The notes under the pieces are model-generated. The model ran no database searches, was not told the origin of the DNA, and was given only the letters and a program-made list of their open reading frames with translations. Below, in pieces: positions 3,301 to 55,150 of a DNA stretch of 64,000 bases. The stretch's first letter is position 1. Each line of letters starts with the position of its first letter. This stretch comes from Phoronis australis (lineage: Eukaryota > Animalia > Phoronida), in assembly GCA_002633005.1 (NCBI GenBank), contig NMRA01000396.1:117199-181198 (forward strand), given 5' to 3'. A program made the translations under genes and the position numbers.

Positions 3301-5052
3301 TGTATAAGACAGTTTGGTGTAAACCAAAAGCTTGGTTTACTGGCTGTGACCTTTCTAACATTCTAAACTGATTTGCTATTTTAACTACCTACATTTTCAA
3401 TATAGAATACCTGTTTCAATATTTTAGGAAAAGATTGGTGGCCTTCGCTATTCATGTATACTAATTGTTCCGCAATAATATTCCAAAATTCTTTTTGAAT
3501 TCAAAACATACTTACTTGCCATTCTACAGATCGTGTACCAACGGCTTCTGAGGATCGTAATAGTCCAACTGAATTGGAAGAGTTAATGTATAGCAGTCTT
3601 TTGATTGTTCTCGAACCGAAAGTTGATTTGTTCAATTATTCAGCAGATACATCCATCATTTGCTGATCCATTGCTTTATTTTTTCACAAATAACCGTTTT
3701 TTTTATAACCCGCAGTAATTTCAGTCGCTCATCCTTTCATAGAAATTATTATTGAAGACAAAGGACGCAGCACGACAGCCATTTCATTAACTTTTGCACA
3801 TGGAGGCAAGTTGGCAATGTGGAGGTCACGAAATAGAGGGTACTAAGAAACCACAGTAAATATCAATGTACCGGGTGGTTATGGCAGAACGGAAACGCTG
3901 GTTACCAGAGAGTACCAGGCGGGTACAGTGTCAGAATAAATGTTGATTAACTAATTGGTACAGGTAGTTCGATTTAAGTAGCCCAAAATTTCTGCATATG
4001 TACTTTTAAAACCATGCGGTCAAACTTGTTTACATGTATATGTATTTTTGACATCAGCATCTATTCTGAATGAGGTTTATCATTTTGGTTCTGGAGTCAA
4101 AGCAGTCTAAAGATTCTAGAAATTTCAGATATTAGATCGTATCAGCTAATAATATGATTAGACTAGATCATGTGGTTTTTATTAGCCAATGGTTAAGTAA
4201 GTACCGTGTTATAATTTGAGTAGAAGTCTAGAAAATATTCAGATGGGATTTGATGGTTGAATCTAGAAGACTTGCTACAGTGTATAGAAAAAAATGTGCA
4301 ACAGAGCCATCTCGTGGAAAGTAGAGAGAGAATCTTGGCAAGTGCCACATTTAACGAACAGGATAATAACTAAGAGCTACGAAAGGTTACACTGTCGATC
4401 GCTGCTTAATATGGTCTCTCATTTAGTTATTCCAATTTATTGAAATCTGACAAAGTCTCTTTCAGTTTATTGAGCACCTTTGACTTGAGTAGAAGCAATT
4501 CATTAAAACTTGCAGTGATCGAAGTATACAAAATCAAAAGAACCACGACCCAGTGGCTTTATCCCCAACAAGTACAATGCATGAAAGTGTGTGCAAGGGT
4601 AACGATGTGACTAGTGTACTTCCGACCAAGGCATGCGCATACAGTAGATGCTCACAGACGGAATTCTGTGTGTCGTTCATCATGTCTTCACACGGCAACT
4701 TTTCAGCTTAGGAGGCATTGTGTCAGAAAGTACGAGACTGTCAATTGTATCGTGGGTGGTAAGATACTGCCTGCAAGTGTTGCCTCACGAGGAACAGTGA
4801 CCAGCAAAAGGAATCGTGGGTAGAAGATACTGCCTCCATGTGTTGTGTCACGAGCAAGACTAATGTACACTCGTAGTTGCTTTACGTCAATGTTGCTGCA
4901 CTCAATTAAGAATATGTTTCACTTGTTTTGGCTAGAGTTTTTTACCTAAACATCATTCAACAAAGAATGGACTCACCGGAGACAGCTCAAGAGTTGTTAT
5001 CTCTGCGGCGAAGGATGTTAAAGTTGAGTATCCGATGAGTTGCCATCAGTCA

Positions 5053-5135
5053 CTGGTACGGTGCGCGGCTTTAGACGCTCTGCTGCTGGGTTAAACATCT
5101 TCTATAGGCCTAACTATCGCCAATTCCCGTACCAG
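5053..5135 (-). ncRNA. Twister ribozyme-like motif, type P5 permutation (degenerate)
   Basis: Minus-strand RNA: CUGGUACGG-GAAU-UGGC-GA-UAG-(20 nt)-UAA-CCCA-GC-AGCAGA-GCG-UCUAAAGC-CGC-GCA-CCGUACCAG. P5 is a perfect 9 bp, T1 is CUA/UAG and T2 is GC/GC. P2 has one mismatch and P1 is poor. Confidence 0.55.
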
Positions 5136-5234
5136 GATGAATTTCGAAAATAATTGACTTGGCTGCGTCAGATGTGATATGCGAGGTTGATGTTGAAATT
5201 GCGCCATATTTTTATGTTGATTTCCTTTGTTGGT

Positions 5235-6163
5235 TTATACTTCATATATTGCAATGTAGGCATCCAGGGGAGGCTTAGATGTACTTGTGACTGTAGAGTC
5301 GTCAAAATTTATCCATTCCCATGCTGACGATTTAACACAGCATGTGTAATGACCACCCGTCGTGTTTCTTCCATGGTGTTCAATGACTGCTTTTATTTTA
5401 CAGCCGGAGAGGTCATACGAGGAAATCTTTGTGTTGATTTTTTCACCATTAGTTGCGGTTCGTAAGATATGAATACATAGGTATTTTGGCGGTTTTACTA
5501 ATGACCATGCGAGCTGGCCACTGAGACTATTACAGTGCGGGCAACTAAAGTCCTCGATGTAAAACGACGTCCACAAGCTATGCCACAACTCCTGCATAGT
5601 TATTTCTTTCCTTAGCGTTGGGAGTTAGACGGTCAACTCCCAGTCTATCTGTGTTTTTCGTTTGCTGTTGAGCAGTTATTACAACTCCTAGTTTGCTTCT
5701 TTACGTGTTGTAAGGTACTAGTAACCTTAGACGTTACATTATCAGCGTTGTGAGCAAGTGTGTCTACGTGCCATTGGTTCAGTAACCATAGTAAAAATTC
5801 ATGGGCATCCTGTTGACTTCCGTTGCCAAGAGAGTTGTTCTGTAATCTTAGTTTATTCAAAATTTCAGACGGAGTTGATGTATACCTTTTAGTTGCTTCA
5901 TATGTGTTCACAAGGATGGTTTTCATATTGTTTTTCTTGTTGATATTGTATTTGTGCCAGTTGAGGTTGCATGAAAAGATAGCTTGAAGTGTAGAGTTCA
6001 CAAAACACGTGTTTCCAACATTGCATAGACCAAATCTCTTATCTTTTGTTGATTTTTCGTTTGTCTTCCTTGATATCGGGGATGACGAAGTAGTTAATTG
6101 TATAGTGTTCTCTGTTGAGTCATGATTGTGAATAGTTTCAACTCCACTTTGCGCTTCAATCAC
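5235..6163 (-). pseudogene. Ubiquitin-specific protease (peptidase C19) catalytic domain, with one frameshift and one stop near 5610-5660
   Basis: Cys box GLCNVGNTCFVNSTLQAI, QQDAHEFL box, zinc-ribbon CNNC/CPHC, PPKYLCIHILR, His box AVIEHHG..GGHYTCCV, WINFDDSTV and a terminal AYIAIY. Confidence 0.92.
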
Positions 6164-6660
6164 GGGCTTAGAAATGTTGCAGAGTTGCCGTTCCGTAAAT
6201 TGCTTGTTGTTTCTTGATAAATATATCGTATAGCTACATCTGAGAGCTTTCTGAGAGGCCGTTTGATCTGTTTGTTTTTTTTATTTCTTTGGGGACCTCG
6301 ACGAAATTCATTACCTTCTTTAATGATTTGTAGATGAAGCCTCTACTGCCAAATTCAACAGGAAACAGGACTGTTTGCATCCTGCGTTTTTACATTCTTC
6401 GACGAGATTTGTATATTTCATTCTTTTCCTCAGGTGTGCTGATTCCATATTGTCTTCTGCTGGTATTGTAAGTTCTATTAAAACTGCTGTTTCTGCCTGA
6501 ATTGACCATAACACAATGTCAGGTCTTAATGCCGAATCTGCCGAATTTCAGATGGGAATATAAGAGGCGTTTCTGTACAATCTTTAATTAGTTTCCAGTC
6601 GTTGGTCTTGGCCAGGAAGTGGGCCTGTTCTTTGAATTTCGGCTCTGTTCTGTTATTGTC
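6164..6660 (-). pseudogene. Restriction-like endonuclease domain (frameshifted)
   Basis: RPDIVLWS, IELTIPAE, RKxxKY and PVEFGSRG motifs. ORF 6320..6514 plus adjacent frames. Confidence 0.9.
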
Positions 6661-7949
6661 GACGTACAAACAATAAATTAATTACGGTATTTAATCATTC
6701 TCTCTCCATCTACGAACAATTTTAAGGCATAGATACATTTAAACTTGCCCACAGTCAACATCTAACATACACGACACCACATGGGCTTGAGAAAATCGAC
6801 AAGTATACTGCGAAGATCTAGCTGGTACAAAGGCTGGCAAATGGGCTAAAGTATAATATACAGTACGTTGCCCTGTAAATGGGCTGGTGACAGTGAAAGA
6901 ACTATATGCTTTCGGCCTAAATTCTTTTGTGGAAATTAAACCCTGGCTGGTGATCAAGTAAATATTTGACTGCAACGGCAGGTGCACGCAAAGATAATTC
7001 TGTCTATCCTAACATTCAAAACAACAATGTCACTAACACGCCAGAAGATCAAGTATTTATACAACACTAGATAATTGACAAAAACCTGTAATAACCAGTC
7101 CGTGGTCCCAGGGAACCTACATAACAATGACACATAGTAATAAAGATCCCATTTCTTACTCAGTGGTTTAATGGTGCAGTGCACTGCAAACAATAGCCCA
7201 ATGGTTACAAAAATACTCAGTTTGTCCTCAAATGTGTAACAGAATTATTTTTTTCTAGGTGGATATAAAGAACTGGACCCAAATGGAAATAAGGTTTTAT
7301 TCAAAATAGTTACAAGATTTCTTTATTATTTAGTATTAAATCTCTTTGTGTGAGTCGATAAAATGGTATACATGGAAAATAACCTAATGTGTTTGAAAAT
7401 GATTTATTTATATTCGTAATCATGTCATTGTAATCTCTACATTAGTTTGATAATTTATGTATTTGTGTATACTGCAACTGTACATTTTCTTTTCATTTGT
7501 TTAGCCCAGATACAATGCCCCTTGGAGCTTTCTGTGTCTGTATATTCATTGTACTGAACATTTCATAATGAACATTAAAAAAATGTGCTTCGAGAAAAGA
7601 AACAACAAATAAGTGTCAGGGATAGAAGCTCAATCACCCCACTCCAAACACGTTTGCACGTCTTCGTGTTAATACATTTTCGAATACAATAAAACATTTT
7701 CTATCACATAATCCCTTCTAGCTGCCATGTCGTTTGTCACTTTCCAAATGGGAGTTACAATCTTAAAAACAAACATTGGTGTAAAAGTACCTTTGTCAAG
7801 TAATATTTCAAGCACCGTTAATGTCTGTGACTACTCTGAACATCCACTTTCAGCATACTGAGATATCACGAAATCTCCCCGAGACATCACAACGGATTGT
7901 TCCTCATTCGAGTTGATCGGCGTAACTTATAAGATACTCGTGTCTGTGC

Positions 7950-9480
7950 TACATGAACCTCTTCTCAGACATCAGTGGTGAAAGCCTCTAGGTCAACTTC
8001 CGTAACTTCATTATCAGGATCAGAATACTCACTTTAATCGTCGACAATAGACTTTAGTTCCTTTCACACTCTATTTTGATCATGATCGCCACCTTGAAGT
8101 GCAAAAACATCCTCAGCACTGAATTCAACATTGTCCACTAGAATGTAGAAATGGTCATGGGAACCATTTGATGCATCACAGTTCTTCAGCCAATTGGTAG
8201 ACACCCTATCAGGGCAAACATCGCCAATGTTGTTGCTCGTTTTGCATGCTATTTGTGAATTGTCCAATACAAACGATGGTCAAAATTAAACTTCGATACA
8301 CAGTCTGTTCTGGCCCAACCCATCTTCCTTAGATACTACAAACACAGGGGCATCTGCTGCTTTCGCGCCTGACGATATCTTCCACAGATGCTCAGTTTTG
8401 TGTTTACCATCAAACGCTACCATCCTTAACAATACAGTATTTACAAGGTGGCACCCGTGTACATCGTAGTTGGACTCTGTGTAATTGTCCTTATGCTTTT
8501 GATGAGCTTTTCTTGCTTTTTATAGCCAAACCTCACGCTTCCTTCAAATCGCCATTAAAGAGGTTCCATGTATTTTATACGCGTTAGCGTAGGCCTACTA
8601 AACCCCAACTCAAAGCCCAAACCTGTTAAAAGCTGAGGTTCATGCCCAAACATAAACAGAAATGGTGATCGATCTAAGAATTCGTGTCTGGTACAATTGT
8701 AGGGATGGGTCAAAGCAGGCAGATGACATTTCCAGTTTTTCTTTTTATCTGGATCCAATGCTATCAGAGCGTTCAAATACCCCTTTACCGAACGATGTTA
8801 ACTAGTTTTTGCTTTAACTATTACTGAGATTTTAAAAAATTCGGCAATTAGTTTATTTGAAACGCTTCGGGAAACCATAATTAGTCATGAAATTGTTGAA
8901 ACTATATTTGCGGTGTTTCTAATCTTTTGATTTTTTGTCGTGGTAGCTCGTGCAAATCAAATGAAGTGATGTGTTAGCACACGTACATTCTGGAAACCCC
9001 TTTCCGATGACTCTAACGTGGAAAATCACTCATACTAACGTTGAGTACTTGCAATTCTCAATAATGGTGCTTCATTAGTAAGTGGACCTGCCTTTGTCTT
9101 CACACATCTATCGCCCCCTTTCCGATGACTCTAACGTGAAAAATCACTCATACTAACGTTGAGTACTTGCAATTTTCAATAATGGTGCTTCATTAGTAAG
9201 TGGACCTGCCTTTGTCTTCACACATCTATCGCGTTGTTGAGTCCAGTTATCCAGTAAATGCAATATCTTTCTAGAGGAAACGTCTTTTGTCAACCACAAC
9301 GACCACATTAACTATGGAGATGCTGCAATGCTCTTGAAATAATCTGTTTAAGCAAAACCAGCTGCAAACTTGACTTCCCATTAACTTGTCATTTACGGCA
9401 CAATACCCCTTGTTTCAGTCTAAGACTATCAAACATACATAGTACCACGCATAAATTACTGTCTCTACTCGCTGAAAGCT
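7950..9480 (-). mobile_element. Degenerate Ty3/Gypsy integrase region (relic shared between duplicated units)
   Basis: LDPDKKKNWKCHLPALTHPYNCTRH..SPFLFMFGHEP integrase C-terminal motif. A homologous relic lies at 45530-46760. Confidence 0.75.
8997..9232. repeat. 118-bp tandem duplication (2 copies)
   Basis: TTTCCGATGACTCTAACGTG...CACATCTATCGC starts at 9001 and again at 9119, near-identical. Confidence 0.9.
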
Positions 9481-10113: not shown

Positions 10114-12756
10114 CCTATAAAGATTCATCCGGTCCACTGGTTTGATAACACGGTGAGAACGTCGTAGTTCTTGAGTAGGAGTTCAGTTAACCTCTGGTTG
10201 AGCTGGTACAGGGGCTGAAGGTGGTGGTGTTGGGTTGTCTCGGTGGTTGTTTTTAATTCCGGGGTAGCGATTCTCATATTTCCAGAATGGTTCAGGGATG
10301 ATCTAATACGTCAAATTGTGGAACCGGAATCGGAGACGACGAGGTAAGACCTCGGGTTTGCTGAACTCTCTTTCACCTCTCCAAATTTCTCTTGGTCGCG
10401 TATTCAGACCTCGTCTCCAACATTCAATTGTGGAGGGGATGCTGTTCGGTGTCTGGGATCAAAATTTGCTTTGTTCCTTTGGTTGAGTTGAGCTTCTTTT
10501 GCTCGTATGTACTGATCATCAAAGGACTTTGGAGGAGGGCTTTAGGCAATATGGGCAAAGTCGTTCGGATACGTCTGAAAATGAGCAGTTTAGTTGGCGA
10601 TTTTCCGTTGTGAGTGGGTGTTGTTTCGTATGCAAGGAACCCTAGATGGGGCTCTGTATTCTTCCGCATCGTGTTCTTTGCAGTTTGGACAGTGTCTCCG
10701 TTTGACTGCAGGTTGAGAGGCGACGACGTTACATGAACGAAACCATAATCTTTAGAGAATCTCACGAAACTTGCACAGGCAAACTGTGGATCATTGTCAG
10801 ACAATACTATGTCAGGAATCTAAGGAATGCTAAATATCGACTTCAAGGCTCCAATAGAATATCGGGCTATTGTCTGAGTAAGTCTTCTGACTTCGATTCA
10901 TCGTGAGTAGTAGTCTACTACAAGGGTGTAGATTTGTTTGTTCAGTTCAAACAAGTCAGTTCCAAAGCTCTCCCATTGAAGACAACAGTGGTTCCTTCAC
11001 CTCATGTCTGTGAAGAGCACAGGGTAAGCACGGTTTGCACATTGTCTCAATCTGTCGATGAGTGACAACTAGACCAATTCTTGGGCTCTTGCTCGGCATT
11101 TTGTTATACCTACATGTAAATGACCTTGGTGGAATTGGTTGAGCATTTCCAGCTGCATCGACTGGGGAATATCGATAAGGTCATCGTATATGAGTAAACC
11201 CTCTGTAAGGGTCAAGTGCTGTAGATTTTCAAAGCATAGTTTATGCGTACGTTGATCGGGAAGGATGAAAGGCCACCCATGTCGGCAGACATTGATCATT
11301 TCACTGCAAACGGTTTCTTTGGCCTGTGCCTCCATATTCTGAAGTAGTCTGGCCTGTTTTGCCGGGAGATTGCATATTGCCAAATGTACCTGGCCCTCAA
11401 CTTCGTTGAAGAAGACTTCGTCTTCCCTTATTGGTATCCCCAGAGGTGCTCGAGACAAGGCATCTGCAACCAGGTGGTTCTTTCCCGGGACGAGGTAGCT
11501 CTTTGGGTTATCTTTCATGAGACGGGCCGAAACGTAGTACTTGCGATGGCATCTACGACAAGTCTGTGAATGACAACAGAGGTACTAGGGGTTAGTTATC
11601 GGTTTCCAGGGTCAATTTTAGCCCGAGGATGAAAGGTACGCTTCCTTTTCTATCACTACCTAACGTTTCTCAGTGTCGCTGAGCGATCTGGATGCACAGC
11701 AGACTGATATTCTGTTGCCGGCAGAATCAAGTTGGAGAAATACAGCACCGTTGCCATACTGACTCGCATCACCTGCTACTATTTTTAATGATTACGGTCA
11801 CAGTGCACCAGAATGCATCCTTAACGTCTTGAGAGGGCTTCTGAGGTTCATCACAAAGGAAGGCTTGGTTCTTCCTCAAGTTCGTTGATCTTTGCCAAAT
11901 TTGTTATGAATTTGGCAAGCTGATTCACCATCCCATTGAATGTTTGTAACTCAGTCACGTTTGTCACGTTTGTGTGCACTGAAAAATCTCGAATTGCTTG
12001 TGTCTTCTCAGTATCAGAGCTGATAATTTGGTCATTAAAAAGTCGCACTCGTCGTTCAAGGTCAGGCCTGCCTTCTAAAGAAAAGCTAAGACTTTGCAAA
12101 CTCTAGAATCGTCGACCCCTAGGTTAGGGCCGTGATTCAAGATGTTGTCAATATGGCATATGGCTCCATCTAAGCCGTCGAGAATGTGGGACATCGTCCG
12201 ATGGAAAACTTCTGGAGGCGAACGTATTCTTAAGGGCAGATAATTAAAACAGAATGCACCATATGGCGTGACAAATGTAGTCAGCAGTCGTGACTTGGCA
12301 CATACAGGTATTTGCCAGAACCCAGAGTTGGAGTCAAGATTAGAGAATATCTTGCTTCCTTGAATCTTTGCCAAGTTCTCATTAACCATAGCCATCGGAT
12401 GGACCTCACGCTTAACATCTTTGTTGAGGGGAGTGAAATTGACACATATTCTCAGATGACACTTAATTTATGCATCTTGTCTAGCTGTGCCTTCAATCTA
12501 GTAAGTAAGGGATGTGCTATTCGACGTGCTTTGTATAAACAGAGTGGTTTAGCGTCGTCCCGCAAAGGGATACCGTAGGGGTTCTTTAGGAGTTCCAACC
12601 CAGTAAACAGTCCTGGGTGTTTTTGTTTGAAGTTTTCTGAAGAGGTTGACTGCTCTACTTCAAACTCCACTGGATCTGGTACCTACAAGTTCAGGGATCG
12701 ATAGCAGCAATGGACAGAAAGTTCTTTGACTGGCCTTTCATGACGTACACAGTTTC

Positions 12757-19541: not shown

Positions 19542-21703
19542 TTACATCTTGGTTGTTTCTGAAGCATTTAACCCAATGTAGTTGGTGGAAACACCACCCA
19601 TGGTCCTAGCGCTTTCTCGGCCGTCGGTGGAGAATGAAGAAAGATTAGAATTTGTTTTCCTCGTAAATAACTTCCGATATTTCACAATTATATGTTTTCT
19701 GCAGATGTAAGAAAGAAATATGAAAAGCCCTTGCAAGGAGTTGAAGATGATGAATAGATACCATAACACGTGACTTCCGGTAAAAGCCCCTAAGTAACCA
19801 AAGATCCACGTGCTTCCCATAACAGTGGAAAGTTTAACGGTTATCAGAAACACGCGATTATTTTCACACTTGTTCTCGATAGTCCTTCTGACTTGACGTT
19901 TAGTTTTTACGAACTGAATAATCGTGAACACAATGAAGATCACATTAATAAGCATGATAATCGCTACGGGAAGCGCAAAGCCATAAAGAATTGCTTCGTG
20001 CCCGGAAATCCAGCACCTTTGTTCATCTCCGTATCGGAAAGATACATCGGTGGCAAACTCCAAAATAATGCACGTGACAACTATCATTAAAGGACCCAGT
20101 ACTGAATAGAGGACATACTTATAAATTGCATAGGGAGATGGTTTCTGTATCTCCATGATTTTGTAAAACGTTTTGAAAACAGAAAAACACATACTATTCA
20201 TCCAAAAGAAGGCACACAGCCACAAAAAATGTTCAGTTACAGCCACTGTCTTACAAAATGCTGGAATTTCTGTACGATCGATTGCAGCTAACATGATGAG
20301 TTGCGCCATAAAAAGTGTTGTGGCGAGGTTCATCATGATTTGACCAGGCAATGTTTGTAGTTCCTTGAAAAGTGCGTACGTCAGCACAAATATCGCAAGA
20401 CCACACAGACTTATCAAGTTTCCAGCTATCGTAAGTTTGTACTGAGTTTTGTTATATTCAAAAAAGAGAATACCAGTTCCATTCGAGAACGGATTGCACA
20501 CATACAGCAAGTTGCCTTGAATAAAGTAGTCTCCAAGTTGAAACGACAATCCAGAATTTACATACGCTATGCCGTCTTTCACTTCATACTCATCCTGCAT
20601 GTATGTGGTCATTCGACACTTAAGATCCAAAGGATCGCTGACGTTATCATTTTCATTCAAAGACGTTTTATTCAAATTAGTAGTCACAGTGTCATAACCA
20701 CACGACAGATTTGGCATAAGATGTTTTCCAGCTGGGCAAACTAATGACCGACATTTCATAGCTAGCTCGTCATAGATTCTATTTTCGGGACATTTCACAG
20801 TTGGCCAACCTATCTTGGTACGAATTTCGTCGCTCAGCCCCGTGAAATCTAGCAGGTGAGAAAAACTCGTGTGTCCGTTCGTAGGCAATGGACGAGGATC
20901 GAAACAAAACAGCATCGGCCAGCCCCCATCTGGACAACTACCGAATTTTAAGTTAACGAAATCATCACCAGCACCACGGAAGTATTCTGAGAAGTACATG
21001 TATGAAAAGCATTCTGCCGTGGAACTTGGACAAAATTCCGTGCAAACTGTTTCCATGGGTTCCACGAGTACATTGCAATGGTGTGCTAGCGACGGTGCCT
21101 TTAGTACCATATTGAAATCGGTCGAATTGTATAGTGCTTGTATCAGTGCCGTGCCGGTAAGGTTTCGGACAGTGCGATCAAAGAGCAACTTTTCGGCTTC
21201 GTAATTCATCGGAAAAGGGCTACCTTTGGGTGCGAAAATAGTACTCCAAAATCTTCCATTTTGGAGAATCTGTGACACGTTTACACGATGACAAAGGGCG
21301 CAATAAATGTTTCGGAAGCAATATTGTCTGCCATCTTCCAAGAATCCGTTCACAGGCAAAACCTGGAATATTTCGTCACTGTTTATAGAGTGGCACTTGC
21401 TAGTAATATTACGGTTTTTAAAATCATCAGGACATCGCGAAATAATCATACTGCCGAGAGGCTTAATGGAATCATCTAACTCCAGACACTCTGTGTAAGG
21501 TTTGATTGACGTGAAGTTCGTTGCACTTGGTTTGAAATCATGACAACAATCGCCGAAGTCGGTACAGATCGGATCACAATAACAAACCTGTCTCTTAAAC
21601 AAGACATGTTGCACTGAAGGCGAAGAGCACGAAATTCCACAAGCTTGATACAGCGACGGCTTAGATGGTTGAGAATCACAAGAAACTCCACACCTCTGGA
21701 ACA
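19542..21703 (-). CDS. GPCR gene A, large terminal coding exon: SMB-like domain, Cys-rich ectodomain and class-B 7TM (Methuselah-like/adhesion-type GPCR)
   Basis: Intact ORF with CYCDPICTDFGDCC, FRNIYCALC, seven hydrophobic segments, HFLWLCAFFWM, YG..RCWI, VMGSTWIFG and FIIFNSLQGLFIF. Polypyrimidine-AG acceptor at 21704-21705, phase 1. Confidence 0.93.
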
Positions 21704-21789
21704 CTGAAAACAGCACAAGTTATTCGACATCTACATGTAATACCTTCCTGCAAATAGTAGATGCTCATCAAGAAACGTCGAATTGTGTC

Positions 21790-22944: not shown

Positions 22945-23202
22945 AATACCTGTAATACCTGTAATACCTGTCACGGACAGGATCATTGGGGATATGCTGG
23001 TGCATTAATCCCCTCCCCAGACCATCCCCGTGACAGCAGAAGGCGCAGAACTCCAGGGCTGACGTTGCCTGTAAGCATTTGATTAGACAGCACTCGGGCA
23101 CGGCCCTTCTTGTGACTCTTCGCAGCATGGCCATAAATAATACCGGCTTCGAGCAGGCGGCTGCCATCATTGAACTCAGCCAGCTGGGATGCAGTCTGCT
23201 CG
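22945..23202 (-). mobile_element. 3' end of an RTE-like LINE with an (ACAGGTATT)3 tail, running into the assembly gap
   Basis: Three 9-bp repeats at 22945-22971 lie exactly where this copy diverges from the duplicate at 25386. Peptide SRLLEAGIIYG....KKGRAR resembles the RTE C-terminus. Confidence 0.55.
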
Positions 23203-23313
23203 NNNNNNNNNNNNNNNNNNNNNNNNNNNNNNNNNNNNNNNNNNNNNNNNNNNNNNNNNNNNNNNNNNNNNNNNNNNNNNNNNNNNNNNNNNNNNNNNNN
23301 NNNNNNNNNNNNN
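23203..23313. other. Assembly gap (111 N)
   Basis: Run of N. Confidence 0.99.
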
Positions 23314-24142
23314 CCGTTCGTAGGCAATGGACGAGGATCGAAACAAAACAGAATCGGCCAGCCCCCATCTGGACAACTACCGAATTTTAAGTTAACGAAA
23401 TCATCACCAGCACCAGGGAAGTATTCTGAGAAGTACATGTATGAAAAGCATTCTGCCGTGGAACTTGGACAAAATTCCGTGCAAACTGTTTCCATGGGTT
23501 CCACGAGTACATTGCAATGGTGTGCTAGCGATGGTGCCTTTAGTACCATAATGAAATCGGTCGAATTGTACAGCGCTTGTATCAGTGCCATGCCGGTAAG
23601 ATTTCGGACAGTGCGCTCAAAGAGCAACTTTTCGGCTTCGTAATTCATCGGATAAGGGCTACCTTTAGGTGCGAAAGTAGTACTCCAAAATGTTCCATTT
23701 TGGAGAATCTGTGACACGTTTACACGATGACAAATGGCGCAATAAATGTTTCGGAAGCAATATTGTCTGCCATCTTCCAAGAATCCGTTCACAGGCAAAA
23801 CCTGGAATATTTCGTCACTGTTTATAGAGTGGCACTTGCTAGTAATATTACGGTTTTTAAAATCATCAGGACATCGCGAGATAATCATACTGCCGAGAGG
23901 TTTAATGGAATCATCTAACTCCAGACACTTTGTGTAAGGTTTGATTGACGTGAAGTTCGTTGCACTTGGTTTGAAATCATGACAACAATCTTCGAAGTCG
24001 GTACAGATCGGATCACAATAACAAACCTGTCTCTTAAACAAGACATGTTGCACTGAAGGCGAAGAGCACGAAATTCCACAAGCTTGATACAGCGACGGCT
24101 TAGATGGCTGAGAATCACAAGAAACTCCACACGTCTGGAACA
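23314..24142 (-). CDS. GPCR copy B, 5' part of the large exon (ectodomain), truncated by the gap
   Basis: Open frame nearly identical to gene A (e.g. CYCDPICTDFEDCC), with the same acceptor at 24143-24144. Confidence 0.8.
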
Positions 24143-24806
24143 CTGAAAACAGCACAAGTTATTCGACATCTAATACTTTCCGGCAAATAGTAGATGCTCA
24201 TCAAGAAACATCGAATCGTATGGAAATAATTTCGGGGTAGGACTTTGATCCAGTAAAGGGTCGCGATGTTTTGAATTGCGTAACTTCACTCCTGGATCGA
24301 AGTTGAGAGCGTCAGTTCAATTTCGCACTAAACAGGTGGATTAAAAAGCGGTGTTCTATGAAAGGTCAACTTTGGCCCTATTGAAGTTATCGCCAGGTGC
24401 CACTGTTATCGTTAAAAATTACAGGGTAGTGACGTCACTAATAGTTATATAATAGTCACTCTAATAATCGTCAATCGATTTAAACCTAAGTTTTATGTCA
24501 GTTAGCACGTGTAAATGTTCCCAAATTGTCACATTGAAAAAATGTTAGCGTGCAGCCCTACCTTGCGATAACTTCAATGACGACTGCGTCTCATACCGTT
24601 TACTTCGATGTTACTTAACTACCGAGCCAGTATGAACGGCCCAGTCAACTTCACCGTATACTCGACGCACCACTCGGACAGGATTTAAGTCAATATGATA
24701 GGACCCTTTAGAAAAAACTGCTGTGAAACTGATGATAATTGCAATCCCGTAAACACACATGTAAGCCTATCGAATGCTTCCGTGCGGAGACAATGGTAGC
24801 CCAACA

Positions 24807-37200: not shown

Positions 37201-39602
37201 TCCACATTGCCTAATTTGTGGACGAGAACGATAAGATAATGTTGTGTGGTTGGTACAGTACGTTAGTTTTATTTGAATAAAATTCGTTATTAGGAACTGT
37301 CCATATAGCTGAGGAATTTCATTGGTCATGTAATGAACATAAGTGTATCAGAAAAATGGCTGAGCATTTACGTATTTGGACAGCAACATGATTAATGTTT
37401 GCTGATGGGTAATTTTTAAAGCCTACGTCATGGCAAAAGATTTGGCATCCATTCACCGTGCTCGCACGGTAAAATGTAGTATTTCATATCCAAGAACCAT
37501 GGTTCGGTCGTGAAATTGCTGAAACTTCGTGAATATGAAAGGAAATTGCGATCCGTGAAACTGGAAAAATTAATTGGTGTCCAGAACCGAGAAATCAATA
37601 ACTTCTCAGTGCGTGAACCGTGACTTGGCCCTTTTGACGTTTCACTGGTACCTCGCTTTCCTTGCCTGCAAAACCCGCCACTGTTTTAAAGTTTTATCCG
37701 GGACATTAATTACAACGAGGCTCACTGCGTCAAAATGCATTAATCTGAACTTATTAAAACAAGGTTTAGACCCAGTTCTCGGTGATGTATCAATATAAAT
37801 ATAATGATGGGAATTAGTGTATATAGTATTGAAGATTTCACTTAGATTGCCAAAGAAGCAAACTAAGAATTGGTACATATATTGCTCAGTGTGTAAGTTA
37901 AAAACTTTACTTAAGAAATGATGTAAAGAATTCCAGAAACGTTTAACACAGAAGCAGCTGTAAAGCACATGCTGAAAAGTCTGGACTTCGCCACAGTAGG
38001 GACATTCGTCTGTTTGTGAAACACCAAATACTTTTAACAATTTTTGTATAAATTCTTTTGTTGATGAAAAATCATTTATTAATAAACATTGTGAAATGAG
38101 GGCTTATAGGTAGATTGAAAGGAGATTATGTATTTCTTTAATTTCAATCTGTGTAATAGTTGAATAAAGTCGCACAATTATCTGGTTTTACAGAAAACAT
38201 GTGAATGAATATGTGTTTAATCCATGAATTGGAACTATTGAACAATAAAAATCTAATGTTATTGCAACTACATGTAACAATCCTTCTATCCGTCACACTC
38301 AGAACTTTCTTCAAGGTCGTTGTAGTGGAAGTATATGGTATTATAGATTGATCCTTCAAGATATATTTTTTGTAAATGCTGTCCCATAATAAGAAGTTTG
38401 TTCTGAGTATCTAAAAATCGTCACAAAATATGAGGCCTGCATTGTACAGCTCTTGGTAAAATAATGATTTACATTTAACAATTAGGTTACAATTGTTCCA
38501 TATCACTTGCTGGCTATTGTTACTTCATTAAATATTTCAGGATTAAGAATATCCAAGGTTGTGAGAACATCTTTGTAAAAAAGGCTGATAATTTCGCATT
38601 TTAGGGTATTCAGTTAAAATTGGATGAAAAAATGAGGACACCACCAATACGACTGAAAAGATGCCTCCGGCATACAATGTATCTTCCAATTTGCCTCATC
38701 CTCTACAGATGTATATTAAAACGCTTGACTCAGTTAAACAATAAGTTTAACTTGATGAGTTCTATGTTAGGATATTTCAAACCACCCTCTTGATATGGCG
38801 AAATTGTCACAGTTTTTTTAATTTTTGGTGGTTTTATTTAACCAAATAAATTATGTGATAAGTTATTTACTTCGTGAATTCTTTTTGGTGATACCCAGAG
38901 TTGACACTACATGAATGAGTGAGACAAACCAAAAGTTTTCGTAATAAGGATTCTGCCTTTTATGGACACATTTCGTGTTTTCAAAATATTAAACTGGTCT
39001 TTAAGCTTTTGATTTTTTCATTAAAATTGAATTTTCCCCTTTTCCGCCAAAGAATATTTCTAGACTTTTAATGGGCTTTTGGGGGCAGCTGATTCCATAA
39101 AGTGAGTTACGATTTCGGTGCAGTGTTGAGGCAAACATCCCTTGGCATTTTTCATAATTCAAGTCGAGTCCAGATAATGTTTCAAAATAATCTAAAAATC
39201 TAAAACAGTTATCCCCAGATTCTATGCCTTTAATGAAAAGAACTGTATCATATGCATACCGTGCAATTTTAATTACGTGATTGGTTATTGTGGGGCCTCT
39301 AATTAATTCATTTTCTCTTATATGAAGTGACAAAATTTCTGCACACAAGACGAACAACGGATCTGTAAGTGGGTCTCTTTGTCGGAGTCTTATCTCTATG
39401 TTAAAATACTGTGATGTAAATCCGTTGATCAACACAGATGACAAAATTACAGAACGCAATGTACGGATTCTGTTGATTAAAACGTCACCAAAATTAAAAG
39501 CTTTTAAGGAGTGAAATAAAAACTCTCACTTTATAGTATCGTAAGCTTTCTTGAAATTGAGGAATACAATGTGACCGGGAGTGTTGTTTTCTTTATAAAA
39601 TC

Positions 39603-40580
39603 CATAGGCGGATTTAGGGGGGGCAGGGGGCCCGCCCCCCCCCCCTTGGCTGCCGCAAAAAAATAAAACAGTAAGAGCGTAGGGAAATGGTGAAATTATT
39701 AATTAACCCCGGTAATTAAAATTATACGGATGAAAAAAGATTTAAATGTGTGCAGTTTTAGTGTTGGGGGGGGGGGCTCAAATCCAATTTCAAGTGTCAA
39801 ATTCGGAACACGGCGCGTTCGTAACGGAACTACAGTATGGCTAAGTATAGAATTTCCCGCGATATCCTAGACGACCGGCAGCGGCGCTGTGCACTACGAT
39901 TCCGTTTCCGTCGTCTGCTCCACTGTGCAATGAAGAAAATTTACTTCATTTTTTAAAGAAAATGGAGCCTGAGTGATGATGAAAAAACAGAAGCTGCTGG
40001 TAAGATGTGAATTTTAATCGAAGCCTTAGTGAATCACTCAGAAACTCGCAACACTCTCTTTGTCAAACCTTATCTTAAGACGGTTTCCAAAGCAATCCCG
40101 TCATTATTGCCAACACGAATTTGGTCTTTTGGGCATTTGAAGACTATTTCAAATACGACAAATTTGTTAAGAATTGATGGCACAAAATATAAAACGTGTA
40201 ATAAGCATTACAAAAAGAAGTAGGTTTCGCGCGCAATCGCTGTGGCCCATACGTCATGTAAATAAGTAAGTCTTTTAGTATGACAATTGTAGTTAAATCG
40301 TGGTGGTGTAGTGGTAACGCACGTGTGCTCTAAGCGCCAGGTCGTGATTTCGAGTCTTTTTTCCTGTTTGACACGTTCTCCGTGTTTTTTTTTTTTTGCC
40401 TTGTTTTCTTGGATAATACTTCAGGAATCAAGGAAAATGCTTGATTTTTAGAGGTAAAAACAGAAAAATTTCCCCCCATTCGTTGCTATGCGCATCTACA
40501 ATCGTGGTTCAGTTTGCGCAAATGCTTCCAGCCGGACAAAATGTTGGGCCCCCCCTTGTGATATCCTAGATCCGCCACTG
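39603..40580 (+). mobile_element. hAT5-type MITE inserted in the L1 RT, with a 5-bp TSD
   Basis: CATAGGCGGATTTAGG...CTAGATCCGCCACTG with TSD AAATC at 39598-39602 and 40581-40585. Removing it restores the RT frame. Confidence 0.85.
40300..40362 (+). promoter_or_regulatory. tRNA-derived Pol III A/B-box module inside the MITE
   Basis: A-box TGGTGTAGTGG at 40304-40314, B-box-like GATTTCGAGTC at 40346-40356, then a T-run. Confidence 0.5.
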
Positions 40581-43500
40581 AAATCTAATGATATCGTCAA
40601 TTACACGTATATTCTGGCCTATTTAGCGTTTTGGCCGGATGTTTGATCTGGGTAAATTAAATTGTTTATATATTTGCATATTTTGTTTGGGATTGTTTTA
40701 GTTACTAATTTATAGTCACAGTTCGAAAGAAAGTTAGGTCTCCAATTGTCTAAAGATAGAATTCCTCGGACTGTTTACTTTTTGGAATTAACGTGATTAC
40801 TTCTTGCTTTTGAGAATTGGACATGTGACCCTTTCCAAAGCTATATGGGACGCTCTCCAATAAATCTTCCTTAATTTTCTTCCAAAAGGTTTTATAGAAT
40901 TCATTAGGTAATCATTAACAGGCGTCTTGTTAGGTTTTGTCTCTAACAGAGATTCGTACAAATCCTCTTCTGATAGATTTTTTGTAAATCGTTTTATGTA
41001 TTGGTAAATTAAAAAGGTCGATTGGATATGTTCTTTCTCCATTGCATTCCTAAATGTAGGAATTAAGCTTCCTGTATTAGTTCACTTGCATATTCCGTAT
41101 GCTTGCTGCATCATCTATAATTTTAGCACCATCTTTAAGGGCGTTAGTATGTTATTTTGCTTGTTGTGGCGTAACTCTGTGCTTTTAAAATACTTCCCAT
41201 TCTCGCCTTGTTCTACCCATTGTGCTTTACTATGCAGAATCTAGCCCTTAATTTTTTGGGTTTGGATAATTTGCAAATCAATTTTGGCATTTTGTAGATC
41301 TTTTTTTAAATCCTGAAAGGGTCACTCTTTACGTTGGGTGTCAAAGCGTCCATTTTTTCTATTAAAACAATTTCCATTTTAATTAATTCCCACACTAAAT
41401 CTGTCTTCAATATGTCAGTATGGAGTACTATAGTTATTTTGTTTATATAATTGGTATAGTTTAAATAACAAGTGTTAAATTTCCAAAGATCACGACCTCT
41501 CTTCGCATTTTCGGATATTTCAAAATGTAAATTGATGGCAGAGTGGTCTGAAAACACTAAGTCGTCAATAATGGCAACGTCTTTGACTGCTACTTCTTTG
41601 GAAATTAGCCACTTGTCACGTCTACTTTGGCAGGACATATTCTTATCAATCCAAGTGTACTTCCTCACACCTGGGTTATTTTTACGCCATACGTCGTACA
41701 ACTTGAAATTAGATTAAAAAATGACGTTCTGTATTAAAGGACTTTTTGTGAAATACACTAATTTCCTTTCTTAACTAAGTCTGTTTGGGAGCGCAGTTAA
41801 AATCACCAGCACATGTATACGTTGGTTGCTTACAATTTTATGAAGTTCTAAATTAATGAAATCCAGAAATTTGAGTTCTTTCCTGGATTCATTTGGAAAG
41901 CGCAGATTGAGTAAACTGAAATCTTGTTCTGCAATTTTGCAGTTGAGAAAATTGTATCTTGCGCAAGTATCGTTCTGGACTAAAGAAGATTCAACATCCA
42001 AACGTGAATGAATTATAATGTCAGTGCCTTTACTATGGTTATTGCCATGACTCGAAAATACCGGAACACCCCACTGACGTTCCCATTTACCAATGGAGAT
42101 AGGAACGTTGTATGTTTCTTGTAAGTAAACTATACCATAATTCTTTTGTTTCAATCATTTAAATAGTTGAGCTCGTTTATTTTCTGAATTAATGTCTCTG
42201 TCATTTATAGACACGCACTTAATGTTAACAATTTGGGGTTTTACAAGGGTTTCGGACGCATCCCTTAACTAGGGTCATGCTTAACAAGATTAACATAAGA
42301 CTCTTAAAATAGATCCAAGATTTAAAAATCTCTACTCACAGAAAGGCACACAGACGGTAAGGGGGGCGAAGGGATACGGACGAAAAACCTAATCGTACTC
42401 GAAAAGCGATATCACTGGCTATTTCTTGAAATGGAGATACAAAACGTCCAAGTGTCACGAAGAACAACGGATTTAGTATTGAACTTCGTCAAAACATGAA
42501 AATTATTACTTTACAGCAGCAAAAGCAATAGCATATTGCTATTATTCTGCAGTAACACTTAACTTAAATTCCTGCATTAGCAAACAGAAAATACTTAAAA
42601 TAAATTGGAATAATAAAAATGTGAATTTATGTACATTCACGTCACCTCTCCCTAGAGTTAGTAGAACTGAGCCATTGGTAGTCGTGACAACCACAGCGCT
42701 CTCACAAAGCGCAACTTCAGGTCACGTTCTAACGCCAATTTCTGCTTTTAATCACCAGACTTGAGCCAGACCAGATTCGCGTGCGTAGGTATGTCTTATG
42801 GGTAACACACTCAGCTAGGTAATAAGATTATGAAATATATAAAAAGCGTAAATATACCTCCATTGCCACAAGTCGTGAACAAATGCACGCACGGGAGCCC
42901 AAGTAGGGTCATCAGCTCTGTAATGACTATTTTTTCTCATTTTTACAGTCAGCGAATAAAAGGGCAATACTGTTGCGTTTAGGGAAAAGAAGGACACGCG
43001 TTCTGGGGGAAATTTATATCCGGTACAAGATAGCAATTCGTCTCGATGTATTGTACGTCATGCAATTTTACGCATTAGTATACCAGTTGAGCAACTTTAA
43101 ATTGAAAATAAGATCTCACTTCCACTCTGTAATTTCAGCAAATGTGTTTGCGCCTACCATAAAACAAATTACTACCACGTAAAACATTGTGTAAATTAAC
43201 CAAGACGTGAAACTCATATCACGCAAAATTCCCTGCCTTATTTCAGACCGATAATGGGATAATTTACACCTAAATTTCTTAACATAGCTTCATGAAGTTT
43301 CATCTGTCCAAACTAAAAGTAAAATTGGCTTAAGTCTGTAAAGACCGAAAGTCAGCCTCCTACAGGATAGGCTTCAGGCTGAACTTCAGTGGCCGTTTGC
43401 ATGGAACAGTCCCAAATAGGAACTCAACTAAGGTTTCCGAGTCCACTGCGTACATGTATCTCTGGCCTTGTGAAAACATTTTGGTCTTTTCTTGTGCTGC

Positions 43501-50922: not shown

Positions 50923-53090
50923 TTACATCTTGGTTGTTTCAGAATCATTTAACTCAATGGAGTTGGTGGAAATATTACTCAAGACCACTGTGCTTTCCCG
51001 ACTGTCGGTGGAGAATGAAGAACTATTCAAATTCATACTCCTCATAAATAACTTCCGATACTTCATTAATATCTTTTCTCGGCAGATATAAGCAAGGAAT
51101 ATGAAAAGCCCTTGCAGGGAGTTGAAGATGATAAATAGATACCATAAGACGTGGCTTCCGGTAAGAGCACCTAAGTAGCCAAAGATCCAGGTGCTTCCCA
51201 TAACAGTGGAAAGTTTAACAGTTATCAGAAACACGCGATTATTCTCCCGCTTGTTCTTGATATTTCTTCTGACTTGACGCTTTGCTCTTATGAATTGGAT
51301 AATAGTGAACACAATGAATAGTACATTAGTAAATATGATAATCGCTAATGGCAGTGCAAAACCATAAAGAATTCCTTCGTGTCCGGAAATCCAGCACCTT
51401 TCCTCATCTGCGTATTGGAAAGGTACATCAGTAGCAAACTCCAAAATAATGCACGTGAGAACTATCAATAAAGGACCCAGTAGTGAATACATCACATACT
51501 TATAAATTGCATAAGGAGATGGCTTCTTTATCTCCATGATTTTGTAAAACGTTTTAAAAACAGAAAAACACATACTGTTCATCCAAAAGAAAGCGCACAA
51601 CCACAAGAAATGTTCAACAATTGCGACTGTCTTACATAACATTTGAATTTCTGTGCGATCCATTATAAGTTGCGCCATAAAAAGTGTTATAGCGAGGTTC
51701 ATCATAATTTGACCAGGCAGCGTTCGAAGATCCCTGAATAGTGTATACGTCAGCACAAATATCGCAAGGCAGCACAAACTGATCACGTTTCCGGCAATCG
51801 TCAGATTGTTTTGAGTTTTGTTATATTTAAAAAACCGAAGACCAGTTCCATTCGAGAACGGATTGCACACATACAGTAAGTTACCTTGAATAAAGTAGTC
51901 TCCTGGCGGAAACGACAATCCATAATTTACATATGCAATGTCGTCTTCCACTTTATACTCATCCTGTGTGTATGTGACCATTAGACAATTAATATCAAAA
52001 GGATAGCTGATGTTCTTAGTTTCATTCCAAAACGTTTTGTCACTATTAGTAATCAAAGTGTCATAACCACACGAACCATTAAGCATTAGATATTTTCCTG
52101 TTGGGCAAACAAATGGCCGACATTTCTTTGCTTGCTTGTCATAGATTCTGTTTTCTGTACATTTCACTAATGGCATTAGTGGCAGTAATTTTTTAGGAGT
52201 ATCTTCGCCGCTCAGTCCTGTGAAGTCTAACAGATCAGCAAAACTAGAGTACGCATTCGTCAAGGAGGAGGGTGGACGAGGATCGAAACAAAATAACATC
52301 GGCCAGCCCCCAGCTGGACATCCGCCGAATTGTAACTTAACGTTATCAACACTAGTGTGGGAAAAGTAGTCTGAGAAGTACATATATGATAAGCATTCAG
52401 CCCCGTTAGCCGGACAGAACTCCGTACAATCTGCCCTCATGGGTTCAACGTGTGCATTGCAGTGGTGTGCGAGTGGTGGCGCCCTTAATAACATGTCAAA
52501 ATCCCTCGATATGTACAACGCTTGTAGTTTTGCCATGCCGGTAAGATTTTGGACAGTGCGATCAAAGAGCGACTTTTGCTCATCGGACGTCATAGGAAGA
52601 AGTTCGCTTTTTGGCTTGAACGTTGCATTCCAAAATGTTCCCTTTTGTAAAATCTGCAATATGTTCACACTATGGCAAAGTGCGCAATAAATGTTTCGGA
52701 AGCTGTAGTATCTTCCATCTCTCAAGAATCCGTTCACAGGCAAACCCTGGAGTATGTCGTCGCTGGTTTCGGAGTGGCAATTGCTAGTAATGTTACGGTT
52801 GGTAAAATCACTAGGACAACGCGAAATGACGATACTACCGAGAGGTGTAATGGAATAATCCAACTCCAGGCACTCTGAGTAAGGTTTGATTGATGTGAAG
52901 TTCGTTACACTTGGTTTGTAATCATGACAACAATCACCGAAATCGCTACAAATCTGATCACAATAACACACCTGTCTCTGAATGGATGCGTTATGTTGCA
53001 CTGAAGGTGAAGAGCACGAAATTCCACAAGCTTGATGCAGTGATGGCTTAGACGTATGAGAATCACAAGAAAATCCACATCTCTGGAACA
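50923..53090 (-). CDS. GPCR gene C, large terminal coding exon (SMB-like domain, ectodomain, class-B 7TM)
   Basis: Intact ORF paralogous to gene A, with the acceptor at 53091-53092, phase 1. Confidence 0.93.
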
Positions 53091-55150
53091 CTGAAAACAG
53101 CTCAAGTTATTCGATATCTAGTAACTTCATGTAAAATACACATGTTGATTCTCACCTCGAAATATATGGGGTTAAATTGGTGGCTAGCTTTTGAACCAAT
53201 GAGAATAATGCAGAAAAAAGTTGATGCTCACATGCACGTAAGTCTATCGAACGCGCATTTGCGCATGCACGAGTGCTAATCTACACCAGGATTGCGTTCC
53301 CAATCTATGCAAGACACTCATGAGTAAATAAGATCCAGCAAGACTTTGTTAGTTAAAAGTATGTATCCTCGGGATGTTATTTACGTACACCATCAATATG
53401 GCCGTCACTGTAGTGGTAAAATGGCAGGGATGAAATGTTGAAGCATGAGAAAGATTTTCCGCTTACGTTCCATTAACATTAGATTCTCGTTCCAAAGTGT
53501 CTCGCAAGTGTCTTGCGTTTACGGTTTCACCTGGTTTGCATGCGCACAAGGCCCGTCCGAGCTTATCGAGGTTCAAGTCCCGAAACAATTAGGTCGTCCT
53601 GCACATGGTTATAATAAGTCGTCTACAGCAATCTACGCTGCGAGTCTAGCAGCCTTATATCCAGCAGCCTCAATAAGGCCATAGGGACACTGAACAGGAT
53701 ATCAAATTGTGAGGAGGTTTATTTACGGTTAAATGTTCGTAAGACTTCATCCTCGTGATATCTTTACATTTAGCTATTAAAATTGTACAAAACAATTTCG
53801 CAAAATATTATGTTTTTGAAAAATCATTAAAAAAACCAACGGACTTTGATTTTTAACTTCATATCAGTTTGCCGTTAATTATGTCACGTGGAAATGGTTT
53901 AGTAAACTTATCTCAACAAAATAGCTGTATGGATAACATGCCGATTTTCATTGGATATGAACACTGTCTATAAAATGTTATGCAAGTTTTCTAAAATATT
54001 GTTTTGGTGTCGTTTTAAGCAGCTTATAGATTTTTTTCATGAAAAAATGGAAGTTCTCATACAAAATTGAAAAAATTTAAAACCTTTTCAGAGAACGTTT
54101 TGGAAAACTTTAAACTACGAAGCATAGTATGTGAAATTTACATATACAAACCGTGAGCCACCTCTGAGATATGACGCTCAGAAGGTAGCCAAATCGCCAT
54201 TTTCGAATAGATCACAAATTGACACAGTGTAAGTGAACCCTGATTTTGTGAATTCAACCAATCATCGTTCTGTCCCGTACTAATGCAATATTGACGTCTC
54301 ACTTGAGTGAAAAACATGTTCTCACCATCTCATAAGGTCAATCCCGTAGTTCTATTTGATTTGGCGTGACACTCGTCAAAACATTTAGACAAGTTTGTCG
54401 GATTAGCAGACATTATGAGGAGTATCCAATTTGTTTCAAATTTTGAGGCTAACAGGGTGTCATTGAGTTTAGAGAGCTAGATGAGTAAGTCGTTTTCTGT
54501 ATATTTACGTGTAACTAGGCCAAAAGCCTGAACACCAATTACCATGGAATCTACGTTAAATGGAATTATATATAATCACATATCTGCACCTGCTGCACAC
54601 TGTAATTATGTGCAAGTTGGATTCCAGATTTTTGCCAAAAGGAGCCCCTAGAGGAATTACTCAACGTAAATGCTAAGACTCTTAATCGTTTCCTATCACA
54701 AAAAAGTTTTGACTTGGCTCACATGTTGATCATGGAGACGATTACAACCTTTTGGCAGAGCTGACAGGCTCATTATTGACATATATCAATCCTTAGTCGT
54801 GGCGTGTCATTTTATACGCCGAGCATGATATCAACCAATAATGAATTGTTAGTTCTTAGCAAGCTTATAATTAAATTATCATCTGAGCAAGGAACATGTT
54901 AAATCCAATGTATAACAGCAAATGGTCTAAGTGAAAAGTCGAAAACAGTGACTACGATGTCTTAGGAACATCTAGCAGTCTCAATTTATCCCTTGGAGGT
55001 GTTTCATAACCGCGCAAACATGTGCATACTTCAATAATCAGCAGAACGTCAAGAGTCTCTCCAAAATTGAGACTGTGTTGAATGAACCGAAATACCCATT
55101 GTAGCCATTGCACAGTGGTAGAACAGTACAGTGGAGTTGAGATACGATAC

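Follow-up and report, generated by a model that had tools for sequence, protein, structure and literature searches.

A truncated RLE retrotransposon copy from Phoronis australis, probably of a lineage that ends in a predicted deubiquitinase

Here, we describe a stretch of the Phoronis australis genome that is, with good confidence, a dead copy, truncated at its 5' end, of a multi-copy RLE non-LTR retrotransposon whose protein ends with the endonuclease (RLE), a linker and a deubiquitinase domain (USP, family C19); in intact relatives the predicted USP likely removes host ubiquitin near the element's own protein. The window, that is, the whole stretch of DNA that was analysed, has 64,000 nucleotides. 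A sequence-only reading had proposed a retrotransposon lineage with its own C-terminal USP, and this proposal is upheld by a junction present in multiple copies and by intact RT-RLE-USP open reading frames (ORFs) in nine divergent families.

Organization of the copy in the window

The element and the repeat that encloses it comprise the following segments.
6283..6671, minus strand: truncated 5' end and RLE core, in four frames with three frameshifts, from translation
6197..6282, minus strand: last RLE helix ASQKALRCSYTIYLSRNNKQF, in the open frame 6280-5645
6041..6196, minus strand: Ser/Thr-rich linker of about 52 aa, starting TERQLCNISKPVIEAQSG, in frame with the RLE and the USP
5657..6040, minus strand: N-terminal half of the USP, with the Cys box GLCNVGNTC, QQDAHE and the first CxxC; Pfam UCH
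5235..5656, minus strand: C-terminal half of the USP, with the second CxxC, the His box GGHY and NFDD; Pfam UCH; terminal stop at 5237-5235
4941..5234, minus strand: 3' untranslated region with a short A run at its end; depth 112-338x the flank median
3926..6767, no strand assigned: host repeat (about 4060-4929 and 6672-6767) enclosing the nested RLE-USP piece, from paralogs and contigs

Translation of the pieces in 6671-6283 gives the RLE core motifs W..L.D, LRPDIVLWS, IELT, K..KY (RKRMKY) and PVEFGSRG, and the P, D, E and K of the PD-(D/E)xK endonuclease are retained. This core is 50% identical over 139 aa to the RLE protein P0002, in which the counterpart of the last helix, ALRGSYTIYLSRKRKQF, is found at the same position. 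The copy begins 3' of the position of the CCHC finger, and no trace of the reverse transcriptase (RT) is left in the translation of the truncated element; the analysis yielded no RT for its family. The stop-free minus-strand frame 6280-5645 has 211 aa and comprises the RLE helix ASQKALRCSYTIYLSRNNKQF, the linker TERQLCNISKPVIEAQSG and the first half of the USP, with a Pfam UCH match of E 2.9e-17 and 63.6 bits (curated cut-off 23.9). The passage from helix through linker into the USP without a stop was therefore read correctly at the outset. The frame 5624-5235 matches the same family with E 6.2e-13 and 49.4 bits (cut-off 23.9). The best PDB sequence match of the N-terminal half is USP46/USP12 (E 6e-13), and a single-sequence structure model of the window ORF has a pLDDT of 35.

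The Cys, His and Asp catalytic motifs and both CxxC pairs, claimed to be retained, are all present, but they are divided between two frames. The claim of a continuous USP frame did not survive, since in this copy the phase is broken near 5655 and the codon at 5627-5625 is a stop. The two halves join across a one-base phase shift that leaves no space for an intron, which agrees with the earlier description of the USP as intronless. Furthermore, the RLE has frameshifts near 6543, 6377 and 6283. With no RT, three RLE shifts, a phase break and a stop in the USP, the window copy is dead and no working enzyme can be encoded by it.

Several of these defects are private to this copy or absent from most others. 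The stop at 5625 is missing in 29 of 29 RNA reads and in all of the DNA contig depth listed, the frameshift at 6377 in 16 of 16 RNA reads, and that at 6543 in six of seven. A contig of run X5 with a single gap over 6193-6348 fits a private origin of the third RLE shift (near 6283) as well. Near 5655, among 12 of the 48 rows of indel states, the end of one contig of the DNA run X1 has a form that puts the USP halves in phase. A 780-base X5 contig is gapless over 5455-6101 and thus seems to carry the break, so that the break is possibly common to many copies in the Phoronis genome; this may imply that the family has recently spread without a whole USP.

The surrounding DNA is of animal type, rich in repeats and in AT, and contains remnants of retroelements and intronless receptor ORFs of the secretin family. 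The other features of the window are listed here.
60400-61720, plus strand: second RLE element, decayed, of another family (38-41% identity), ending soon after its RLE
19542-21719, 22983-24158 and 50923-53106, minus strand: intronless secretin/adhesion-type receptor ORFs, tandem paralogs; 7tm_2 in both of those scanned
10424-12467, minus strand: LTR-type element remnant with integrase- and RT-like frames, recognized by eye and by weak RVT_1
37642-41713, minus strand: APE-type LINE remnant, recognized by eye and by weak RVT_1
8997-9232: 118-base tandem duplication, 98% identical

One of the receptor ORFs has a weak somatomedin B match, and the middle one (22983-24158) is interrupted by an assembly gap at 23203-23313.

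The RLE-USP junction is repeated in the genome

Four public sequencing runs were aligned to the segment 4000-8000 of the window at 80% likeness; the best-matching public run shares 0.39 of the sampled words. The baseline in X1 was taken from six unique-looking flank bins with a median depth of 10.9, and the summed depth is a rough guide that should not be read as a copy number. By this measure, the RLE, the linker and the N-terminal half of the USP have 9.8-20.8x the flank median, and beyond this half the depth climbs through 32, 69, 112 and 163x to 338x towards 4938. One X1 contig, over 5753-6047, has a depth of 200.8 with 2 differences. A steady rise of depth to one end is the pattern of a 5'-truncating LINE, and the USP therefore belongs inside the repeated unit. 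The 3' untranslated region (4941..5234) is the most repeated part of the element by read depth; contigs begin at 4941-4945, and loose ends of low agreement are found at 4976-4977.

In the coding part, first-mate-minus RNA reads predominate (26-77 versus 0.15-8), an orientation that is antisense by the usual library convention, here uncalibrated. The last 130 bases (4938-5071), at 338x the flank depth, have the opposite RNA strand bias to the coding part, and a SINE sharing this 3' end of the element is possible.

The junction is bridged in other copies. The 780-base X5 contig, which covers 6253-5455, bridges the RLE helix to the USP in another copy, and so do 11 RNA reads of run X7 over a skip in the linker, with 71 letters or fewer on the shorter side. 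The skip, at 6101-6155/6157, is seen in these 11 X7 reads and in one X5 contig and makes a linker variant that is shorter by 51 bases (17 codons). Moreover, X1 contigs connect 4929 to 6672 and 4853 to 6675/6691, which corresponds to the host repeat free of the element; in these empty-site contigs the RLE, the USP and the 3' end are excised together. The block 3926-6767 is in turn absent from two paralogous segments of the window (33628/33642 and 44828/44827). At this one insertion site no target-site duplication was found, the longest direct repeat of the flanks having 7 bases and lying off the ends.

The ends of the host repeat 3926-6767 have a loose inverted likeness, GTGTC...ATGTTGA, and the repeat may be a non-autonomous DNA transposon. 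The segment 5793-5990, in the N-terminal half of the USP, is present with 0-1 differences in run X6, whose label names another organism; this nearly unchanged segment would be explained by a close relative, a mislabel or a transfer.

A processed USP pseudogene that landed by chance beside a LINE fragment at one place would leave a fragmentary copy such as that of the window, and the other RLE element of the window (about 60400-61720) does stop after its RLE. That element, however, is of a different family (38-41% identity). The junction studied here is repeated and is bridged in copies other than this one, the RLE, the USP and the 3' end are removed as one from the empty sites, and the same layout recurs across dozens of relatives. 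Chance adjacency is refuted by the multi-copy junction and by the recurrence, and we give it a vanishingly small probability. The initial concern about a single-copy retrocopy is thereby settled with respect to copy number, although many relatives do end at the RLE.

Relatives with the same architecture

Of the 1061 matches to the RLE-to-USP reading in a HMMER search, the best 150 were examined and used to build profiles. Among these best 150, 134 proteins have an RLE and 16 have the USP only. The 134 RLE proteins can be divided into 37 that run on to a USP, 20 with another tail of more than 60 aa and 77 that end within 60 aa. A scan of metagenome contigs with an alignment confirmed 288 stretches, and 80 loci were kept; the RLE and the USP are in one ORF in 28 of them, the USP is in a neighbouring ORF in 3, and there is no USP in 49. 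As the searches were seeded with RLE plus USP, these fractions do not tell how frequent the USP is among RLE elements as a whole, and some of the proteins and loci that lack the USP (97/134 and 49/80) are cut by contig ends.

Pfam scans of 56 of the best 150 found UCH in the fused proteins, with up to 175 bits in relatives, and RVT_1 and zf-RVT upstream in the long ones. The combination of RVT_1 and UCH, suggested earlier as a signature to look for, is thus present in long relatives, and full-length ORFs were found as well: 12 are open through the RT, the RLE and a complete USP. They belong to 9 families that are 27-56% identical, and they reach 1909 aa. Cluster-member ORFs of 1470-1738 aa sit on contigs of 5-7 kb. 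The order of domains is an N-terminal region (with zinc fingers in P0157), the RT, a CCHC finger, the RLE, a low-complexity linker and the USP, which is the last domain, with 0-33 residues beyond it in 48 rows. The CCHC pattern is found in 10 of the 12 full ORFs. The P, D, E and K of the endonuclease are retained in 61 of 61 USP-bearing RLEs, the E being partly fixed by the search pattern, and the RT of P0157 matches the R2 chains 9nl3 (E 4e-15) and 9dou (E 1e-14). The linker between the RLE and the USP is 30-273 aa long and rich in S, K, P and T. Very long linkers, up to about 270 aa and without a Pfam match, are found in L021 11-5737, L022 274-5574 and P0025, that of P0025 being repetitive.

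Pfam scans of P0111, P0157, P0170, P0174, P0177, L021 and L022 found none of the C48, APE and Josephin families. In prokaryote genomes the search gave a single match, of 37 residues, located where a MAG contig ends; it is likely stray eukaryotic DNA. Viral contigs contained no relative of the window protein; the alignment query found stand-alone USPs only, and 80 of 80 viral USP loci are without RT or RLE. Word-index protein searches had very little sensitivity here: one with the junction ORF found 0 matches among longer proteins, another found 1 RLE-only match, and one with the alignment as query found 7 unrelated large USP proteins in a length window of 2595-5000 aa.

Conservation, selection and structure of the USP

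The catalytic apparatus is well conserved among 43 complete element USPs. The Cys is found in all 43, the oxyanion Asn in 42, the His and the Asp in 41 each, and the Zn cysteines in 39-43. For the analysis of selection, 231 locus pairs were made and the 30 with the highest USP identity were viewed. In the 28 of these that are divergent, the USP has a pS of 0.67-0.87 versus a pN of 0.18-0.28, with synonymous sites saturated or nearly so. The dN/dS of the USP, which had been named as a check, is 0.10-0.19 in the 9 pairs of relatives with a finite dS, and that of the RLE is 0.06-0.14 where finite; two near-identical pairs have USP values of 0.34 and 0.53, on few changes. The element USPs are under purifying selection. 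The RLE of the window lies outside the main clade with USP, and the figures therefore describe the relatives, not the family of the window.

An alignment-based AlphaFold model of P0047 has a mean pLDDT of 81 and consists of two folded domains connected by a low-confidence (disordered) linker. Its USP part aligned to USP2 with Z 32.4 and an rmsd of 1.8 over 279 residues, and its N-terminal part aligned to the C-terminal region of R2Tg with Z 14.6 and to R2Bm with Z 12.5. The fold of the USP also matches USP18 (Z 28.2) and USPL1 (Z 20.1); USP2, USP12 and USP35 outrank USPL1. From these residues and this model, the USP of intact relatives is predicted to be an active deubiquitinase.

Phylogeny of the elements and of their USPs

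In a tree of the region from the RT to the RLE (40 rows, quick search), one clade of 22 rows (SH-aLRT 100) takes 17 of the 18 USP-bearing rows. Of the other five rows of this clade, L013 is cut by the contig, L006 has its USP after a stop, and L031, L035 and L036 are without USP. A tree of the RLE, with 192 rows and only 148 columns, has a main clade of 77 rows, 58 with USP, and P0008 and P0177 are outside it. Also outside is the window RLE, which groups with P0002, P0005, P0043, P0014, P0032 and P0059 (97); only P0005 has a USP among these six, the five others being short-tailed. By likeness of motifs, the USP elements are candidate members of the HERO clade, the rows of the trees being unnamed.

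The window USP is nearest to P0026 (36%), an orphan compact USP with no RLE in its record, and the path from it to any of the tree's cellular USPs is 2.1 or more. The element USPs are split in unconstrained trees, but a single clade is not rejected by the AU test (p 0.64); either a single ancient capture followed by many losses or more than one capture would fit. An origin from giant viruses was also considered and is unsupported; the element USPs are not nested among giant-virus USPs. Since the protein stops at the RLE in many relatives, and some branches have lost the USP, this domain can be described as accessory rather than core.

Alternatively, the element could have acquired a host USP mRNA behind its RLE and simply transport it as cargo, with no benefit from it. 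Repeated loss of the USP among relatives would fit this, and so would the break near 5655 that is possibly common to Phoronis copies, the resemblance of the N-terminal half to USP46/USP12, and P0026, a protein without RLE in its record, as nearest neighbour. Yet the catalytic residues and the frame are kept across families 27-56% identical while synonymous sites are saturated, and the identities of RLE and USP correlate over the 231 pairs (Spearman 0.70, the pairs not being independent). Moreover, linker lengths differ by whole codons, and the window USP is distant from all cellular USPs. Unused cargo is very unlikely on balance.

A DarT-like module in the same position

Besides the USP, which has persisted for long but was lost from certain branches, a DarT-like module can occupy the position behind the RLE. 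Pfam (PF14487 in the first four proteins) places it as follows.
P0024 314-392: DarT-like domain behind the RLE
P0076 216-362: DarT-like domain behind the RLE
P0085 162-308: DarT-like domain behind the RLE
P0190 275-421: DarT-like domain behind the RLE
P0027 301-449: DarT-like domain between the RLE and the USP
P0177 1221-1369: DarT-like domain between the RLE and the USP

The matches in P0024, P0076, P0085 and P0190 have E values from 7e-10 to 3e-26. P0177, a cluster member of P0027, has 1738 aa and the order RT-RLE-DarT-USP. P0085 matches DarT1 (8baq, E 4e-5). The QAE motif is retained in the DarT-like domains; P0085 reads QAE, and the deposited DarT chains read QAA or MAA, which we take to be inactive Glu mutants. 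In P0106, DarT was flagged only by a profile built in this analysis, with no Pfam match. By its likeness to DarT, the domain is a putative ssDNA ADP-ribosyltransferase. Our search of the open literature found no publication on DarT together with a retrotransposon.

These elements may form, as we tentatively suggest, a widespread and undescribed group of RLE retrotransposons in which the position behind the endonuclease is a swappable effector slot for a USP, a DarT-like domain or both; these enzymes would edit the host's marks of damage and silencing at the nick, namely ubiquitin on protein and ADP-ribose on ssDNA. If this is true, the slot would be a virus-like counter-defence arm for eukaryotic retrotransposons.

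Proposed mechanism

R2-type elements insert by target-primed reverse transcription, carried out by the RT-RLE protein on its own RNA. The polyprotein of the elements described here would likewise bind its own RNA, its RLE would nick the target DNA, and reverse transcription would be primed there. A USP beside the RLE, on a flexible tether of 30-270 aa, would act locally; it would be carried on the RNP before insertion and would be present at the nick while insertion takes place. We give a little less than an even chance to a substrate on the element itself, namely ubiquitin chains attached to its protein or RNP, whose removal would counter degradation. Chromatin or repair factors that carry ubiquitin at the nick are a plausible though more doubtful target, so that action on the element's own protein is slightly more likely. 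Other host targets, or a ubiquitin-like modifier, are unlikely.

A different function would be that of a processing protease, or of one acting on a ubiquitin-like modifier (SUMO, NEDD8 or ISG15-like) instead of on host ubiquitin marks. Ulp1-type proteases are found in NeSL and Utopia-1_TSP, according to Kojima and Jurka 2015 (PMC4640811); P0008 has a weak Peptidase_C98 match (E 7e-4), and USP18 and USPL1 have the same fold (Z 28.2 and 20.1). On the other hand, only 3 of 66 linkers contain GG, which makes self-cleavage unlikely, and only 1 of 66 contains [LR]xGG. Pfam scans of the full-length RT-RLE-USP proteins found no ubiquitin-like domain, and USPL1 ranks below USP2, USP12 and USP35 structurally. 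Processing or modifier cleavage has a small chance in our judgement, and the removal of host ubiquitin remains the preferred function.

Comparison with known systems

Ubiquitin- and SUMO-type proteases recur among mobile elements. The present elements are compact, of single-ORF R2 type and assayable in vitro and in cells, and their USP belongs to a class for which standard probes and inhibitors exist. With natural sisters that have or lack the domain, the question of why transposons carry deubiquitinases becomes directly testable. The C-terminus of the RLE tolerates big fused enzymes, which is relevant to R2-based gene-insertion tools. Furthermore, RLE-USP ORFs, for example P0042, get named 'ubiquitin carboxyl-terminal hydrolase' like host genes, and this is a warning for annotation.

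Kojima and Jurka 2015 (PMC4640811) list CRE, R2, R4, NeSL and HERO, and describe an RLE at the C-terminus of Utopia and an Ulp1-like protease at the N-terminus of NeSL and Utopia-1_TSP; the word 'ubiquitin' is absent from its main text. In Craig et al. 2021 (PMC8557442), Josephin-like domains are described in Dualen and in the C-terminal extension of Chlamys-1_cBra, and a disruption of protein degradation is proposed for such domains in retroelements. A deubiquitinase-type domain in a retroelement is therefore not new as such, and the sequence-only reading, which named only Ulp1 and OTU proteases, had overlooked the Josephin-like domains of Dualen and of the Chlamys-1_cBra C-terminus (PMC8557442). 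Our search of the open literature found no publication on a USP or DarT domain in RLE elements; it is conceivable, if somewhat unlikely, that the RLE-USP layout is already catalogued, for instance in Repbase or Dfam.

The elements resemble R2-type elements in their single ORF with RT, CCHC finger and PD-(D/E)xK RLE and in their 3'-biased copy profile, but they add a linker and a whole USP after the RLE, the domain that closes the protein in Utopia as described in PMC4640811. Like NeSL and Utopia-1_TSP in that description, they are RLE elements whose polyprotein includes a cysteine protease from the ubiquitin/SUMO system; theirs is an Ulp1 (C48), N-terminal and in nematodes, whereas here it is a USP (C19), C-terminal to the RLE. 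With Dualen and Chlamys-1_cBra, as presented in PMC8557442, they share a deubiquitinase-type protease in a retroelement, C-terminal in Chlamys-1_cBra; there, however, it is of the Josephin family, and Dualen has APE plus RLE while Chlamys is Penelope-like. Compared with the cellular USPs USP2, USP12, USP46 and USP8, the element USPs have the same fold, Zn finger and Cys and His boxes, but they are only about 20-25% identical to them in structural alignments, form a minimal domain of about 255-290 aa, and are insert-free, intronless and fused to a retrotransposon. The stand-alone USPs of giant viruses are similarly compact domains and are the top look-alikes in the ESM Atlas; RT or RLE is found in 0 of their 80 loci, and the element USPs are not nested among them. 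What sets these elements apart is the protease family (USP/C19), its position C-terminal to the RLE, its presence in many families with evidence of selection, and the DarT-like alternative.
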